Sequence record: MW883059
Reading direction: 5' to 3' (one strand)
Origin: Escherichia phage vB_EcoM_SYGD1
Length of the DNA stretch: 64,000 nt
Shown here: positions 523 through 32,312 of the stretch, one piece after another
Numbering within the stretch: position 1 is the first letter of the stretch
How the letters are laid out: every line of letters starts with the position of its first letter
Made by a program: the position numbers and the translations under genes
The notes under the pieces: generated by a model
Databases searched by the model: none
The model's input: the letters and a program-made list of their open reading frames with translations, nothing else
What the model was told of the DNA's origin: nothing

Positions 523-842
523 TAATTGAGGCCTAGGTATAAGGTGACTTATACTTGTAATCTATCTAAACGGGGGACCTCTCTAGTAGACAATCCCGTG
601 CTAAATTGTAGGACTACCCTTTAATAATTTCATCAGGATTAGTTACTTACCGTGTAAAATCTGATAAATGGAATTGGTTCTACATAAATGCCTAACGACT
701 ATCCCTTTGGGGAGTAGGGTCAAGTGACTCGAAACGATAGACAACTTGCTTTAACAAGTTGAAGATATAGTCTGATCTGCATGGTGACATGCAGCTGGAT
801 ATAATTCCGGGGTAAGATTAACGACCTTATCTGAACATAATG
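523..842 (+). ncRNA. group I self-splicing intron in td (320 nt, endonuclease ORF missing)
   Basis: Exon 1 ends ...TTCTTGGGT, insert starts TAATTGAGGCC and ends ...CTGAACATAATG; removing 523-842 joins ...VDVFLG to LPFNIASY in frame; matches my recollection of the T4 td intron core. Confidence 0.85.
624..695 (+). pseudogene. 3' stub of intron-encoded homing endonuclease (I-TevI-like), rest of ORF deleted
   Basis: In-frame ...ISSGLVTYRVKSDKWNWFYINA followed by TAA inside the intron; no start codon and no GIY-YIG domain upstream. Confidence 0.6.
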
Positions 843-1721: not shown

Positions 1722-3976
1722 TTAATGTTATCAAAAGTAGTGGTGTTTCTCAGAGCTTTGACCCGCAAAAAATTATTAAAGTTTTATCTTGGGCAGCTGA
1801 AGGAACATCAGTAGATCCTTATGAATTATATGAAAATATTAAATCTTATCTCCGTGATGGAATGACAACTGATGATATTCAGACTATTGTCATTAAGGCC
1901 GCTGCGAATTCTATTTCGGTTGAAGAGCCTGATTATCAATATGTAGCTGCACGTTGTTTAATGTTCGCTCTTCGTAAGCATGTTTATGGGCAGTATGAAC
2001 CACGTTCATTTATTGACCATATTTCTTACTGTGTAAATGAAGGTAAATATGACCCTGAATTATTGTCAAAATATTCAGCAGAAGAAATTACATTTTTAGA
2101 ATCAAAAATTAAGCACGAGCGGGATATGGAATTTACTTATTCCGGGGCGATGCAATTAAAAGAAAAATATCTAGTTAAAGATAAAACCACTGGTCAAATT
2201 TATGAAACTCCACAGTTTGCATTTATGACTATTGGAATGGCATTGCATCAAGATGAACCTGTTGATAGATTAAAACATGTTATCCGTTTTTATGAAGCGG
2301 TATCTACTCGACAGATTTCATTACCAACTCCTATTATGGCTGGTTGCCGTACTCCAACTCGGCAGTTTAGTTCATGTGTTGTTATTGAGGCAGGCGATTC
2401 ACTGAAGTCTATCAATAAGGCTTCTGCTTCAATTGTTGAATATATCTCTAAACGCGCTGGAATTGGTATTAACGTTGGTATGATTCGTGCTGAAGGTTCT
2501 AAGATTGGCATGGGTGAAGTACGCCATACTGGTGTTATTCCTTTTTGGAAACATTTTCAGACTGCTGTTAAATCATGCTCACAGGGTGGAATTCGTGGCG
2601 GCGCTGCTACTGCTTATTATCCTATTTGGCATTTGGAAGTTGAAAATCTTCTTGTTTTGAAAAATAACAAAGGCGTAGAAGAAAACCGTATCCGTCATAT
2701 GGATTATGGCGTCCAGTTGAATGATTTGATGATGGAACGTTTTGGAAAGAACGACTACATTACTTTGTTTAGTCCGCATGAAATGGGTGGCGAGCTTTAT
2801 TATTCTTATTTTAAAGACCAAGACCGTTTCCGCGAATTATACGAAGCAGCAGAAAAAGACCCTAATATTCGCAAAAAGCGTATTAAAGCCCGTGAACTAT
2901 TTGAATTACTCATGACTGAACGATCAGGAACAGCAAGGATTTATGTGCAGTTCATTGATAATACGAATAATTATACTCCGTTTATTCGTGAAAAGGCACC
3001 TATTCGTCAGAGTAACTTGTGTTGTGAAATTGCTATTCCAACAAATGATGTGAATAGTCCTGATGCTGAAATTGGATTGTGTACTCTCTCTGCATTCGTA
3101 CTAGATAATTTTGACTGGCAAGACCAAGATAAAATTAATGAATTGGCAGAAGTTCAAGTTCGTGCTCTTGATAATCTGTTGGATTACCAAGGATATCCAG
3201 TTCCTGAAGCAGAAAAAGCTAAAAAGCGTCGTAACCTCGGTGTAGGTGTTACCAACTATGCAGCTTGGCTGGCAAGTAACTTTGCTTCTTATGAAGATGC
3301 TAATGATTTAACACATGAACTATTTGAGAGATTACAGTATGGACTCATTAAAGCATCCATTAAGCTCGCAAAAGAAAAAGGACCTTGCGAATATTATTCA
3401 GACACTCGTTGGTCTCGAGGCGAATTACCTATCGACTGGTACAATAAAAAGATTGACCAAATCGCAGCTCCAAAATACGTTTGTGACTGGTCGGCGCTGC
3501 GGGAAGACCTTAAGCTCTTTGGCATCCGTAATAGCACATTATCAGCACTTATGCCATGTGAGTCATCTTCCCAAGTTTCTAACAGTACAAACGGTATCGA
3601 GCCTCCACGTGGACCAGTCTCTGTTAAAGAATCAAAAGAGGGTTCCTTTAATCAAGTCGTGCCCAATATTGAGCATAACATAGACCTATATGATTATACA
3701 TGGAAATTAGCTAAGAAAGGTAATAAACCTTATCTTACGCAGGTAGCTATTATGCTGAAATGGGTATGTCAATCAGCTTCAGCGAATACATACTATGACC
3801 CGCAGATTTTTCCAAAAGGAAAGGTTCCAATGTCAATAATGATTGATGACATGTTATACGGATGGTATTATGGCATTAAAAATTTCTATTATCATAATAC
3901 CCGTGATGGTTCTGGTACTGATGATTATGAAATAGAAACTCCTAAAGCCGACGATTGTGCAGCGTGTAAATTGTAA
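1712..3976 (+). CDS. nrdA: ribonucleoside-diphosphate reductase large subunit (class Ia)
   Basis: 754 aa; GAGGA RBS; active-site NLCCEIA; C-terminal redox Cys pair ...ADDCAACKL. Confidence 0.95.
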   Translation: MQLINVIKSSGVSQSFDPQKIIKVLSWAAEGTSVDPYELYENIKSYLRDGMTTDDIQTIVIKAAANSISVEEPDYQYVAARCLMFALRKHVYGQYEPRSFIDHISYCVNEGKYDPELLSKYSAEEITFLESKIKHERDMEFTYSGAMQLKEKYLVKDKTTGQIYETPQFAFMTIGMALHQDEPVDRLKHVIRFYEAVSTRQISLPTPIMAGCRTPTRQFSSCVVIEAGDSLKSINKASASIVEYISKRAGIGINVGMIRAEGSKIGMGEVRHTGVIPFWKHFQTAVKSCSQGGIRGGAATAYYPIWHLEVENLLVLKNNKGVEENRIRHMDYGVQLNDLMMERFGKNDYITLFSPHEMGGELYYSYFKDQDRFRELYEAAEKDPNIRKKRIKARELFELLMTERSGTARIYVQFIDNTNNYTPFIREKAPIRQSNLCCEIAIPTNDVNSPDAEIGLCTLSAFVLDNFDWQDQDKINELAEVQVRALDNLLDYQGYPVPEAEKAKKRRNLGVGVTNYAAWLASNFASYEDANDLTHELFERLQYGLIKASIKLAKEKGPCEYYSDTRWSRGELPIDWYNKKIDQIAAPKYVCDWSALREDLKLFGIRNSTLSALMPCESSSQVSNSTNGIEPPRGPVSVKESKEGSFNQVVPNIEHNIDLYDYTWKLAKKGNKPYLTQVAIMLKWVCQSASANTYYDPQIFPKGKVPMSIMIDDMLYGWYYGIKNFYYHNTRDGSGTDDYEIETPKADDCAACKL

Positions 3977-4707
3977 TGAATTATCAAAAAATCTATAATG
4001 ACCTAATTTCCCGAGCTCAGGCTCGGGAACATTTATCCGAGTATAAAGAGACACATCATATAGTCCCTAAATGCATGGGAGGTTCTGATGATAAAGAAAA
4101 TTTAGTTGAATTAACAGCTAGAGAACATTTTATAGCGCATCTATTACTATGCAAGATAAATGAAGGCCATTTTGGTCTTGCCTCTGCGTTAACGTTAATG
4201 GCAACAGATAAAGCTGGTAATAGAATTAATAACAGATTGTATAGCTTGCACAGAAAATTATTTGCTAAAGCTAATTCTGATTTCTTTAAGAAATATTGGA
4301 AAAATAATCCTCATCCTAGAGGAATGTTAGGCAAGCATCATAAAAACGAAACTAAACAACATGTATCAAACGTGAATAGGTATGCATGCCCATCTATCGA
4401 AATACATAAATTCTCATTAGATGGGGATTTCATAGAAACCTTTCACTCTATTGCCGCAGCGTCCAGGTCAGTTAATGGAAACGGGTCAAATATCAAATAT
4501 TGTGCTGAGGGTAAATTTCAATATGCCTATGGATTTCGATGGGCATATCAACTTGATGCAAAGTTTGACAAAATACAACCAAGAGATTATAAAGGAATCC
4601 GCGGTAAGAAATGGATTAATAATGGAAGTGAATGCACGCTTATAGGTAAAGATGATATTATACCGCCAGGTTGGAAACGCGGCAGAATTTTAAAGAGGAA
4701 AAATTAA
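3976..4707 (+). CDS. HNH homing endonuclease, free-standing (mobE-like, between nrdA and nrdB)
   Basis: 243 aa; start overlaps nrdA stop (TAATG); HNH motif HHIVPKCMGGSDDKENLVELTAREHFIAH. Confidence 0.8.
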   Translation: MNYQKIYNDLISRAQAREHLSEYKETHHIVPKCMGGSDDKENLVELTAREHFIAHLLLCKINEGHFGLASALTLMATDKAGNRINNRLYSLHRKLFAKANSDFFKKYWKNNPHPRGMLGKHHKNETKQHVSNVNRYACPSIEIHKFSLDGDFIETFHSIAAASRSVNGNGSNIKYCAEGKFQYAYGFRWAYQLDAKFDKIQPRDYKGIRGKKWINNGSECTLIGKDDIIPPGWKRGRILKRKN

Positions 4708-5885
4708 TGTCTACAGTTTTTAATACAAATCCAGTTGATGTTTTAAAAGAACCTATGTTTTTTGGTTCAGGTCTTGGTATTGCGCGTTATGATATTCAAC
4801 GTCATAAAGTTTTTGAAGATTTGACCGAAAAGCAATTGTCGTTTTTCTGGCGGCCTGAAGAAGTAAACTTAATGATGGATGCTGCGCAGTTTAATAAGCT
4901 TCCTCAGTATCAGCAAAATATTTTTACTAACAACCTGAAGTATCAATCACTTTTGGATAGCATTCAGGGTCGTGCGCCGTCTGCTGTACTTATGTCATTA
5001 ATTTCAGACCCAAGCCTTGATACATGGGTTGCTACATGGACTTTTAGTGAAACTATTCATAGTCGTTCATATACTCATATCATGCGAAATCTTTATACTG
5101 ATCCGTCAAAGGTATTTGATGAGATTGTATTAGATGAAGCTATTATGAAACGTGCTGAATCCATTGGACGTTATTATGATGACGTTCTGATTAAAACTCG
5201 TTATTGGGAAAACGCTAAAGCTGCTACAGCATTTAAATTTGAAATTAATGCAGACGAAGACGTTATTGAAGATGCTATTGAGCATGAAATGTATTGGAAA
5301 CGTGAACTAATGCGCTCTCTTTACCTCTGCCTGCACGTAATCAACGCATTGGAAGCTATTCGTTTTTATGTATCTTTCGCATGTACCTTTAACTTCCATA
5401 AAAACATGGAAATCATGGAAGGTAATGCCAAGATTATGAAGTTCATTGCGCGTGATGAGCAGCTTCATCTTAAAGGCACCCAATATATTATTCGTCAGCT
5501 TCAATCCGGTACTGATGGCGATGAATGGGTTAAAATTGCTCAAGAGTGTGAACAAGAAGCAGTTGATATTTTCATGGAAGTTAACCGCCAAGAAAAAGAT
5601 TGGGCAGTTCATTTATTTAAAGATGGAGATGTTCCTGGATTAAATACAAATAGCATGTGGAGCTTTATTGATTACTTAACTGTATCTCGTATGAAACAGT
5701 GTGGTCTTCCATGCCCAATTACCGATGCTCCGGTTAAACATCCATATCCTTGGATTCGTGAATACCTTAATTCTGATAATGTTCAATCCGCGCCGCAAGA
5801 AGTAGAACTGTCATCTTACCTTGTAGCACAGATTGATAATGATGTTGATGATAAAGTTATGATGAGTTTTAAAAAATATTTTTAA
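4707..5885 (+). CDS. nrdB: ribonucleotide reductase small subunit, uninterrupted (no intron)
   Basis: 392 aa from ATG 4707 (MSTVFNTNPVDVLKEPMFF...); continuous ORF typical of NrdB. Confidence 0.9.
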   Translation: MSTVFNTNPVDVLKEPMFFGSGLGIARYDIQRHKVFEDLTEKQLSFFWRPEEVNLMMDAAQFNKLPQYQQNIFTNNLKYQSLLDSIQGRAPSAVLMSLISDPSLDTWVATWTFSETIHSRSYTHIMRNLYTDPSKVFDEIVLDEAIMKRAESIGRYYDDVLIKTRYWENAKAATAFKFEINADEDVIEDAIEHEMYWKRELMRSLYLCLHVINALEAIRFYVSFACTFNFHKNMEIMEGNAKIMKFIARDEQLHLKGTQYIIRQLQSGTDGDEWVKIAQECEQEAVDIFMEVNRQEKDWAVHLFKDGDVPGLNTNSMWSFIDYLTVSRMKQCGLPCPITDAPVKHPYPWIREYLNSDNVQSAPQEVELSSYLVAQIDNDVDDKVMMSFKKYF

Positions 5886-30097: not shown

Positions 30098-30113
30098 AAG
30101 GGCCGAAGCCCTT
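30098..30113 (-). promoter_or_regulatory. GC hairpin between the HNH gene stop and the uvsW.1 RBS
   Basis: AAGGGC-CGAA-GCCCTT overlapping the HNH stop codon. Confidence 0.4.
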
Positions 30114-30804
30114 ATAAATTAACTGTTTTTCTAAGTATTCTTAGTTTGTACATTGATAATCCAGTAGCTTTAGAAGCATCTTTCATGCATTTATACTTAA
30201 CACCATTTACTTCTATAGGTTTAGCAGCTGGGTTATTAGCTCCTGAATTATCTGGCATGTTATCTTTAATTTTCTGAATAGATTTAGCGGAATGTTTCCT
30301 TCCATACATGCCATTATTTTTACCTGATTGATTGATAGAATGCAATCTTTTAGCTTCTTCAGTCCATTTTGTTGGGTTCATTCTTTTAGTTTTACTAATT
30401 TTACTTCCCCACGTAATTGGACGATTTTTCATGAGTTTTGACATATATTGTTTATGTTCTTCCGTATGGTGTTTTCCGTAAAATGGATTACCTTCACCTG
30501 ATTGAAGTTTTGCCATTTTACGACGTTCCCAGGCGTAAGATTTATTAACGTGTCTTTCATGAGTATTTGAATTCATTCCCATACATATAACGGCTTTAAT
30601 TATACCGTAATGGTTTGGATGAATTTTAGCTAAAAGTTTATGAGCTATAAAATGCTCTTCAGCTGTTAGTTCTACCAAATTACACTTATCATCTGTACCA
30701 CCCATACATCTAGGAATTATATGATGAGTTTCAGTGTATCCATTAAGGCGAGCCCGATTCTGGGCTCTATTAATTAAATTATCATATATTAATTTATAAT
30801 TCAA
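30112..30804 (-). CDS. HNH homing endonuclease, free-standing, inserted between uvsW and uvsW.1; TTG start
   Basis: 230 aa; HNH motif HHIIPRCMGGTDDKCNLVELTAEEHFIAH; TTG start 7 nt after GAGG and overlapping uvsW TGA. Confidence 0.75.
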   Translation of the reverse strand: MNYKLIYDNLINRAQNRARLNGYTETHHIIPRCMGGTDDKCNLVELTAEEHFIAHKLLAKIHPNHYGIIKAVICMGMNSNTHERHVNKSYAWERRKMAKLQSGEGNPFYGKHHTEEHKQYMSKLMKNRPITWGSKISKTKRMNPTKWTEEAKRLHSINQSGKNNGMYGRKHSAKSIQKIKDNMPDNSGANNPAAKPIEVNGVKYKCMKDASKATGLSMYKLRILRKTVNL

Positions 30805-32312
30805 AGTTTAACCTCTTTCATCACATAATTAAACTTCTCATCAGCATAACGCTGAATACGATCAAGTCCATGTTTTAAAAGATAGTTTAAATGCGAGTAT
30901 TTTTTAGAAGATGTTTTTGATTTAGAAACTACGCCCGCGTCATCTATGAGGTCCCAGACTGTTGCGATTGTTTTAGAACCATGCTTACGTAATACGCGAC
31001 CTATTGTTTGCAATACAATAATTTTAGATTTAACGCCGTGCGCTAAAACAACGTGATGCAGATTTTTAACTGAAATACCAGTAGAAAATACACCATAACT
31101 AGCTACTATAATTATTCCTTTACCGTTTTCAGCTAAGGTTTTCATTATGTTTCGAGTTTCGGTATCAACTTCCCCTGATACGTAATAAACTTTATCGTAT
31201 TCATTTTTAATTAAATCGAAAATAGCTTTACCATGTGATACATGCTTAAACATGACAAAAGCGTTTTCATCTTTTTGCGCAAGTTTAATAGCTAATTTAG
31301 CGATCCATTTATTTCTTTTACTGAGCCCAGTAATAATTTTTATTTCTTCTTGGTAAGTTTTTCCCTTTAATTTAGTAGTGAACTCATCAGGATAACGAAG
31401 AAAAATACTATTAATTTTTAACTCAGTTACTTGTCCATCTTCCATTAATTTAGAAGTCGTTACTGGCTTAAATATTTCACCAAACATTCCAACATACTGC
31501 ATGATATTAGCTTTGCCATCACGTAATGAACCTGATAGACCAAATTTGAACATGCAGTTATTTAAACCTGATATAATAGATGAAATACTTTTTCCTGTAG
31601 CAAGATGGCATTCATCATTCATCATCATTCCAAATTGTGAAAACCATTCTTTTGGTTGTTTTACTACAGTTTGCCATGTACCAACAATTACCGGTGCATC
31701 ATTTTTATATTTATCATCTTTTGATGCTCCGCCACCAATTTTCTTTATCATTGCATGACTGAATAAACGATAATCAACAAAGTCATCAGCCATCTGAGTT
31801 GTCAGAGCAGTTGTTGGAACAATGATAAGAATTTTACCTTCATAATTTTCCAAATAATAACGTGCAAGCAAAGCTTGAATTAAAGATTTACCTGCGGATG
31901 TTGGAAGATTAAGAATTCTACGACGATTAACTAATCCTTCGAACACTGCATCTTTTTGATACCAATGCGGTTCAATTCTTTTATTTCCTGAATAGATTTC
32001 TAACTTAGAAAGCCATTCATCAAAATCTTTTCTTGATAATTCTTCTTTTTCGTTAATTTGTGGGTCAATCCAGGCTTTATAGCCAAAGTTATCACAGAAC
32101 TTTTTAATTTGCCCGACTAAGCCGAACGGAAGAAGGCGATTATAATCTAAAAGACGGATTCGTCCATCCCAGTGACCATATTTGTATTTCGGATTAAAAC
32201 GATACCCATCAGCTTCAAAGCTAAAGAAATCACGGAGTTCATGAAATGTACTTTCTTCACAATCAATTCTCACGTGACTAAAATCATAAAAATGTACTTT
32301 AATGTCAGTCAT
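30801..32312 (-). CDS. uvsW: UvsW DNA/RNA helicase (SF2)
   Basis: 503 aa; MTDIKVHFYDFSHVRIDCEE...; Walker A LPTSAGKS, DExH-like NDECH. Confidence 0.9.
   Translation of the reverse strand: MTDIKVHFYDFSHVRIDCEESTFHELRDFFSFEADGYRFNPKYKYGHWDGRIRLLDYNRLLPFGLVGQIKKFCDNFGYKAWIDPQINEKEELSRKDFDEWLSKLEIYSGNKRIEPHWYQKDAVFEGLVNRRRILNLPTSAGKSLIQALLARYYLENYEGKILIIVPTTALTTQMADDFVDYRLFSHAMIKKIGGGASKDDKYKNDAPVIVGTWQTVVKQPKEWFSQFGMMMNDECHLATGKSISSIISGLNNCMFKFGLSGSLRDGKANIMQYVGMFGEIFKPVTTSKLMEDGQVTELKINSIFLRYPDEFTTKLKGKTYQEEIKIITGLSKRNKWIAKLAIKLAQKDENAFVMFKHVSHGKAIFDLIKNEYDKVYYVSGEVDTETRNIMKTLAENGKGIIIVASYGVFSTGISVKNLHHVVLAHGVKSKIIVLQTIGRVLRKHGSKTIATVWDLIDDAGVVSKSKTSSKKYSHLNYLLKHGLDRIQRYADEKFNYVMKEVKL

Follow-up and report, generated by a model that had tools for sequence, protein, structure and literature searches.

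The td locus of vB_EcoM_SYGD1

We analyzed a 64,000-nt window of Escherichia phage vB_EcoM_SYGD1 (MW883059), to which all coordinates refer, on the plus strand unless stated otherwise. The window is T4-like phage (Tequatrovirus) DNA: its bases 1-1200 share 98.9% identity with phages U115, ESh30 and L14 and 95.9% with T4 isolate T4_ev151, and the best database match to the first 25 kb reaches ∼96.5% identity, with none higher. The plus strand carries, in order, td, two small genes (Pfam DUF5496 and DUF4326), nrdA, an HNH endonuclease gene, nrdB and denA. The HNH gene (3976-4707) encodes a free-standing homing endonuclease of 243 aa with Pfam HNH and NUMOD1 domains (PHROG 655, E 2e-57) and lies between nrdA and nrdB, the position of mobE in T4; nrdB itself (∼4707-5885) is uninterrupted and thus vB_EcoM_SYGD1 has no nrdB intron. 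In several relatives with a short td intron, an extra hypothetical gene of ∼115 aa lies between frd and td (U115 at 559-906, MLP2 at 259-606 and N2 at 256-606); it is missing in T4 and would fall upstream of the window start. Phage N2 also has a minus-strand gene, annotated as an I-TevI-like endonuclease, between td and nrdA (2024-2654), an arrangement that resembles collaborative homing.

The td frame, which codes for thymidylate synthase, is open from base 1, nine N-terminal codons being lost to the window start. It closes at 522 (...GTTTTCTTGGGT) and reopens at 843 (CTTCCATTTAAT...), giving exon 1 at 1-522 and exon 2 at 843-1154 with the stop codon at 1152-1154. The intervening 320 nt (523-842) begin with TAATTGAGGCC and end with GAACATAATG; a TAA at 523-525 stops the exon-1 frame and a guanosine forms the 3' terminus at 842. 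Rfam family RF00028 (group I intron) matches 513-794 over its full model (1-253) with 70.3 bits against a gathering score of 50 (E 8e-16), the only Rfam match in the whole 64 kb, and the insert aligns with the T4 td intron in two blocks, which bears out an earlier note on this DNA that had read the frame break at 522/843 as a td group I intron. Like the T4 td intron (1016 nt, subgroup IA2), the insert interrupts td at ...VFLG|LPFN..., has helices P1-P9.2, opens with an in-frame TAA and ends in G. The exon junction (GGT|CTN) is the same as in T4 td, and this shared insertion site is informative because the related intron of Aeromonas phage Aes508 sits 21 nt upstream. That td intron (∼1960-3010), homologous to the T4 td intron and with a GIY-YIG ORF inside, is inserted after ...SQR and before SVDV..., which is the I-TevI cut position in the T4-type site.

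Excision of 523-842 restores the td reading frame. The joined exons encode 277 aa, of which 263/278 are identical to T4 Td, and give a single uninterrupted match to Pfam Thymidylat_synt (profile positions 9-266 of 266, E 1.5e-90), so that both exons are intact, as had been claimed. The last three intron bases (840-842, in AUAAUG) form an ATG, with which gene callers begin a false 'thymidylate synthase' CDS of 104 aa (840-1154); consequently, relatives such as U115, HP3 and MLP2, among others, have td annotated as two genes and the intron left unannotated. Two-gene td annotations whose second start is the intron-end ATG need correction. The small ORFs within the intron (526-624 and minus-strand ORFs) are mechanical and without support.

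Ribozyme core and splicing

We wrote a helix model by hand (P1, P2, P3, P4, P5, P6, P6a, P7 in a pseudoknot with P3, P7.1, P7.2, P8, P9, P9.1 and P9.2) and set it against an alignment of 11 td introns trimmed of their ORF region (the window, T4, G28, PD112, N2, CJY920, EI, MLP2, 235Ecol030PP, STP4-a and Aes508). In the window each of the 76 pairs that make up P1-P9.2 is either Watson-Crick or G.U. Across the 11 sequences 98.6% of cells are paired, compared with 28-44% when the partners are slid by 1-3 columns, and 23 pairs are changed on both sides; none of 500 shuffles attained the observed values. P7 is invariant in 11/11 sequences, and compensatory changes occur in P3, P4, P7.2, P8, P9 and P9.2. 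P1 comprises seven pairs between exon 1 (516-522) and the internal guide sequence, its 3' strand (531-537), with a U522.G531 wobble at the 5' splice site and 96% of cells paired across the 11 sequences. The 3' strands of P6a (675-684) and P6 (690-691) lie inside the former ORF end. They are followed by the 3' ribozyme domain (697-831), defined by the helix model and covariation, with the 5' strand of P7 at 697-701, the 3' strand of P3 at 736-741, P8 at 743-760, the 3' strand of P7 at 768-772, P9 at 777-794 and P9.1 with P9.2 at 795-831; P7.1 and P7.2 also lie within this domain. The P3/P7 pseudoknot, which forms the guanosine-binding site, and the core helices P3-P8 have standard pairs throughout.

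A plain minimum-free-energy fold of the intron finds P2-P6a, P7.1, P7.2, P8, P9 and P9.1 (z = -2.46). P1 and the P7 pseudoknot are absent from it, which for the pseudoknot is expected, so these helices rest on the handwritten model and covariation. With every pair standard and covariation in support, the T4 td ribozyme core proposed in the earlier note is intact, all helices from P1 to P9 are paired in the model, and the P3/P7 core pairings are retained.

Identity to the T4 td intron is 96.3% over the first 81 nt and 98.7% over the 3' core. Ten base substitutions separate the two introns, three in the remnant of the I-TevI gene described below and seven in the ribozyme; the latter include intron positions 13, 14, 54 and 94 in the 5' part and 240 and 253 in the 3' core. 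At positions 13-14 GA has become AG; these bases of the guide sequence face two exon U's, so that a U.G and a U-A pair trade places and both bases remain paired. G94A converts a G.U pair of P6a into an A-U pair, and A240 (G240A relative to T4) is the Rfam consensus base in J8/7. A54G lies in J4/5 beside P4 and is common to U115, HP3 and other phages, all of them viable; judged from the sequence, it is the one change that may or may not bear on catalysis.

The td pre-mRNA would fold into P1-P9.2, exogenous guanosine would attack after the U.G wobble 522/531, and the terminal G at 842 would direct exon ligation to yield an intact thymidylate synthase mRNA. Between the window and two phages with the same deletion junction, MLP2 and PYps55T, the exons have a dN/dS of 0.09-0.10 and no in-frame stops. 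This low value among carriers of one junction indicates that td has been under purifying selection since the deletion, which requires splicing. Taken together, the 76 intact pairs in the helix model, the complete spliced Td and the dN/dS of ∼0.1 suggest that the 320-nt intron almost certainly still self-splices.

Laboratory td constructs, which do splice, resemble the window intron in retaining P6a and the core after excision or opening of the L6a/ORF region. They include the P6-L6a deletions of Galloway Salvo et al. 1990, who mapped the tolerance of this region to deletion (as cited in PMC2729099), shortened-P6a constructs (PMC2729099) and P6a-permuted introns, the td intron being active when circularly permuted in the P6a ORF region (PMC8554844). 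Such constructs show that the L6a/ORF region is dispensable. Unlike them, the window intron is natural, has a junction of its own and keeps 48 nt of non-core ORF sequence together with an operator-like site.

The I-TevI remnant and other short td introns

With the 1016-nt T4 td intron (T4 locus positions 707-1722) as reference, global alignment resolved the insert into T4 intron positions 1-103 joined to 800-1016, separated by one 696-nt gap that is also single relative to T6, RB3 and other full-length introns. The junction lies at 625-628 (CCCTTTAAT|AA|TTTC), where a 2-nt AA microhomology can be assigned to either flank of the T4 alignment and makes the breakpoint ambiguous by 2 nt. The I-TevI ORF occupies T4 intron positions 132-869 (245 codons). 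The deleted segment (104-799) starts 28 nt before the ATG and includes, besides the late promoter and the RBS hairpin region, the start codon and codons 1-223; the deletion thus begins upstream of the ORF and is not internal to it, as the earlier note had supposed. Each I-TevI expression signal (late promoter, RBS, start codon) is either contained in this segment or interrupted by its edge, and the late-promoter-like AATAAATA matches TATAAATA at 7/8 positions in T4 and at 5/8 in the window. A single microhomology-mediated deletion of 696 nt would account for the removal of the expression signals and codons 1-223 together. In contrast to the T4 td intron, the window intron is without the late promoter, RBS, start codon, GIY-YIG domain, linker and zinc finger.

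What is left of the gene is its 3' end, codons 224-245 plus stop, at 627-695 (stop 693-695) in a frame open from 612 only. Bases 627-692 encode ISSGLVTYRVKSDKWNWFYINA, identical at 22/22 positions to I-TevI residues 224-245 (tblastn E 1.9e-9). These residues are the only part of T4 I-TevI that tblastn matches in the intron, and the remnant frame has no ATG, GTG or TTG start codon. The proposal that I-TevI was lost through a deletion sparing its extreme C-terminus therefore holds, as does the homology of the stub to I-TevI; its span was placed at 624-695, which adds one junction codon (ATA) to the true extent. Pfam domains of T4 I-TevI are GIY-YIG at residues 3-90, a zinc finger at 149-179, NUMOD3 at 179-201 and a DNA-binding domain at 192-242. 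The remnant is the tail of the last of these and thus cannot be a functional protein. The C-terminal motif YRVKS.K.NW.Y also ends the intact td-intron endonucleases of Salmonella phage STP4-a and Aeromonas phage Aes508, which indicates that the remnant derives from the gene and not the reverse.

The three substitutions between the stub and T4 are all synonymous in the old I-TevI frame. We considered this as a sign that the deletion arose in a diverged, still-selected I-TevI allele and rejected it, because at one of these sites MLP2 and PYps55T, which have the same junction, still carry the T4 base; at least one change thus postdates the deletion. The stub is a leftover of the ORF in part only: ∼21 of its 69 nt (675-695) are the 3' strands of P6a and P6, obligatory ribozyme sequence, whereas the truly vestigial part is ∼48 nt (627-674). 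According to Edgell et al. 2011 (PMC3073962), P6a, P6 and P7 draw on the final 20 nt of the I-TevI ORF. Position C865, which forms the G78-C865 pair in the T4 td intron (Vicens et al. 2009, PMC2729099), corresponds to C169 of the 320-nt intron, in agreement with the helix model.

The exact junction occurs in 16 phage records, representing 13 distinct phages once four HP3 and HP3-derived records are collapsed, and in two short metagenome contigs; it is thus neither chance nor an assembly artefact. A search of IMG/VR viral contigs for the exact junction gave 0 matches. The carriers were isolated on E. coli, Shigella and Yersinia and form two intron haplotypes that differ at five sites. Their exons differ at up to 40/519 positions (7.7%) in exon 1 and 83/312 (27%) in exon 2, and phages 235Ecol030PP and MLP2 are identical from -48 to +140 around the intron, with identity breaking at about -49 and +141. 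A shared junction in such diverged td backgrounds implies that the allele is old, with time enough for recombination to carry it into several of them.

Shortened td introns of other relatives sit at the same insertion site with a ribozyme that is ∼95-99% identical, and have at least four other independent I-TevI deletion junctions, or at least five losses in total. The earlier note saw degeneration caught in a natural genome; with one junction in 13 phages with diverged exons and at least four others beside it, the window has a circulating allele and not a unique or fresh event. In the G28 class (445 nt; T4 intron 1-221 plus 792-1016), an in-frame deletion between a pair of CATTTTAAA repeats, each coding for RHFK, leaves a mini I-TevI of 55 codons (G28 locus 1331-1498) that has kept its promoter, RBS and start codon. 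Klebsiella phage EI (315 nt; 1-139 plus 843-1016) has a GGAAT microhomology and keeps the ATG, and in the PD112 class (262 nt; 1-93 plus 848-1016) the deletion extends up to the 3' strand of P6a. The N2/CJY920 class (254 nt, at 1201-1454 of each compared locus) is no simple deletion, its P6a being rebuilt as a perfect GTTC-TTTT-GAAC hairpin; every other short form maps as T4 sequence minus one segment. The G28, EI, PD112 and N2/CJY920 forms thus share the loss of I-TevI with the window and each differs in its junction. A G28-like form is a possible direct parent of the window allele, since the right edges coincide within repeat ambiguity, both with TTTAATAAT, although G28 carries the T4 stub sequence and two stub positions set the window class apart from it. 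Between the window and EI, the ribozyme core is ∼96% identical and the exons 65-70%. Conservation that is so much higher in the ribozyme than in the exons agrees with the intron having spread horizontally and then lost its ORF on separate occasions; the same endonuclease gene has disappeared several times independently among related phages. By row count alone, ∼35 of 291 intron-bearing records are without the full ORF.

According to reviews up to 2010, each of the three T-even introns carries an endonuclease gene of its own (PMC2993671), and we found no published natural td intron without I-TevI in the literature searched. The GenBank records of a 2004 survey that we inspected have full-length introns in T6, LZ2, RB3 and TuIa. 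Phage TuIa (AY262157), whose record is 1517 nt long compared with 1877 nt, was considered as an earlier shortened td intron and rejected; its exon 1 is partial and its intron 1016 nt.

Homing site, mobility and rival readings

The primary binding region of I-TevI spans 20 bp with the insertion site at its centre, and cleavage falls 23/25 nt upstream of that site (Edgell et al. 2010, PMC2988022), at the motif CNNNG (PMC5009752, PMC2988022). Once an intron interrupts the homing site, the allele is immune to the endonuclease of that intron (Hausner et al. 2014, PMC3984707). In the window the intron splits the binding region, leaving 11/20 matches across the exon 1-intron boundary and 12/20 across the intron-exon 2 boundary, compared with 20/20 in the intact site. 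The intron also separates the cleavage motif CAACG (496-500; positions -27 to -23 relative to the insertion site) from the exon-2 half of that region. With its site split in this way, the td allele is expected to resist any I-TevI that a co-infecting phage brings in. The earlier note had seen in it a potential recipient for I-TevI homing, which is not supported given the split site and the immunity principle. An intron without its nuclease cannot home alone. The ORF would be regained either by homologous recombination in the 103-nt and 217-nt ribozyme arms, a process undriven and symmetrical with ORF loss, or after a prior precise loss of the intron; the site restored by such a hypothetical loss would be 41/46 identical to T4, with CAACG intact. 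Synonymous sites around the intron (501-503 and 845-860) differ from T4 within the I-TevI target and vary among relatives: the Ser codon after CAACGC is AGT in the window and TCA in T4, and exon 2 reads CTT CCA ... GCA in the window compared with CTA CCG ... GCG in T4.

I-TevI also binds an operator that is 15/20 identical to the homing site and overlaps the late promoter just 5' of the ORF; it does so as tightly as the homing site, and cuts there ∼100-fold less well (PMC2988022). The best match to the binding region within the window intron is TTGTAGGACTACCCTTTAAT at 606-625 (intron positions 84-103), with 15/20 identities in the window and 14/20 in T4. It overlaps the 5' strand of P6a (607-616) and ends at the junction, and from this we infer a putative retained I-TevI operator, probably kept because its left half is the P6a strand. 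Immunity may for this reason not be absolute, as the operator-like site could still bind I-TevI and be cut weakly.

Taken together, these results make it highly probable that the insert is a T4-type td intron from which I-TevI was removed by one microhomology-mediated deletion of 696 nt, with the ribozyme untouched, and that it still splices, resists I-TevI and represents an old allele. It is textbook knowledge that homing endonuclease genes decay within introns that persist, and as a single observation the loss of I-TevI is an expected stage of this process, with modest surprise value.

A stronger claim, compatible with this explanation, is that selection favours deletion of I-TevI, which would end the conflict between ORF translation and ribozyme folding, the retained ribozyme acting as a gene-drive resistance allele. 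The number of independent junctions, at least five, and the share of intron-bearing records without the full ORF point in this direction, as does the presence of the 320-nt allele in several exon backgrounds in phages of three host genera; de-regulated I-TevI translation is reported to lower td splicing and to cause thymidine dependence (Gibb and Edgell 2010, as cited in PMC2988022). Neutral decay after target saturation, however, predicts recurrent deletion too, the majority of intron-bearing records apparently keep the ORF, and wild-type regulation already restricts I-TevI translation to late times, so that we regard selection for the loss as a tentative reading with the odds against it. It is tempting to speculate that endonuclease-less td introns in general are recurrently selected gene-drive resistance alleles, in which the ribozyme plug splits the I-TevI target, nuclease and splicing interference are shed, and spread occurs by recombination or trans-homing. 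This broader proposition is somewhat less likely still; if true, its five or more independent origins would make the life cycle of homing endonucleases measurable in phages.

Less probable again is mobility of the endonuclease-less intron in trans, either through the free-standing HNH enzyme or through co-infecting I-TevI acting on a third, intronless genome. Homing in trans is documented, MobE mobilizing the defunct T4 nrdB intron (PMC2790892), and the HNH-NUMOD1 gene lies 3.1 kb downstream at the T4 mobE position. If this enzyme nicks nrdB like MobE, however, the td intron is ∼4 kb off, far for a co-conversion tract. The same junction in mosaic td genes with short identical flanks, as in 235Ecol030PP and MLP2, would fit such mobility but is equally explained by ordinary homologous recombination.

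Phage T4 can dispense with td in thyA+ hosts. A dead, split td pseudogene whose intron no longer splices is nevertheless very improbable, as exon dN/dS lies between 0.07 and 0.25 in every comparison, the exons are free of stops and frameshifts, each ribozyme pair is preserved, and the catalytic core (P7 and J8/7) agrees with the Rfam consensus. Finally, an ancestral ORF-less intron into which I-TevI was inserted later in T4, a notion to which the supposed ORF-less origin of group I introns (PMC3073962) and the clean P6a hairpin of the 254-nt N2/CJY920 intron lend some appeal, is effectively refuted for the window allele, which retains 48 nt outside the core that specify precisely I-TevI residues 224-239, a segment whose protein sequence is conserved in distant ORF-bearing introns and which is part of the Pfam I-TevI DNA-binding domain, and whose junction lies next to the operator and interrupts the late promoter, while the other short forms, N2/CJY920 excepted, are T4 minus one segment.

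The nearest precedent for the deletion reading is the T4 nrdB intron with its deletion-inactivated I-TevIII (Eddy and Gold 1991, as cited in PMC2993671 and PMC2790892). Both are natural T-even group I introns in which a deletion inactivated the endonuclease and splicing was kept, as we infer for the window, and for both a full-length version is known in relatives. They differ in gene, intron and endonuclease family (HNH for I-TevIII); the I-TevIII remnant is a larger truncated ORF whereas the window keeps 22 codons without a start, and trans-mobilization has been demonstrated for the nrdB intron and would be conjectural for the window.

Work on intron homing in bacteria and phages has td/I-TevI as its reference system. 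The window allele and the four other deletion types provide this system with a natural series, from the full ORF through an in-frame mini-ORF and a 3' stub to no ORF, which is usable for rates of endonuclease loss, for the resistance of nuclease-free alleles to I-TevI and for any gain in splicing after ORF loss. The natural junctions also delimit the dispensable L6a region.

A second HNH endonuclease gene (30112-30804, minus strand; 230 aa) is found elsewhere in the window, directly downstream of a UvsW-like helicase gene (30801-32312, minus strand). The N-terminus of its product is 47% identical to the first HNH protein, and the C-terminal part is 32% identical to I-TevI residues 169-234, the NUMOD3/DNA-binding region.
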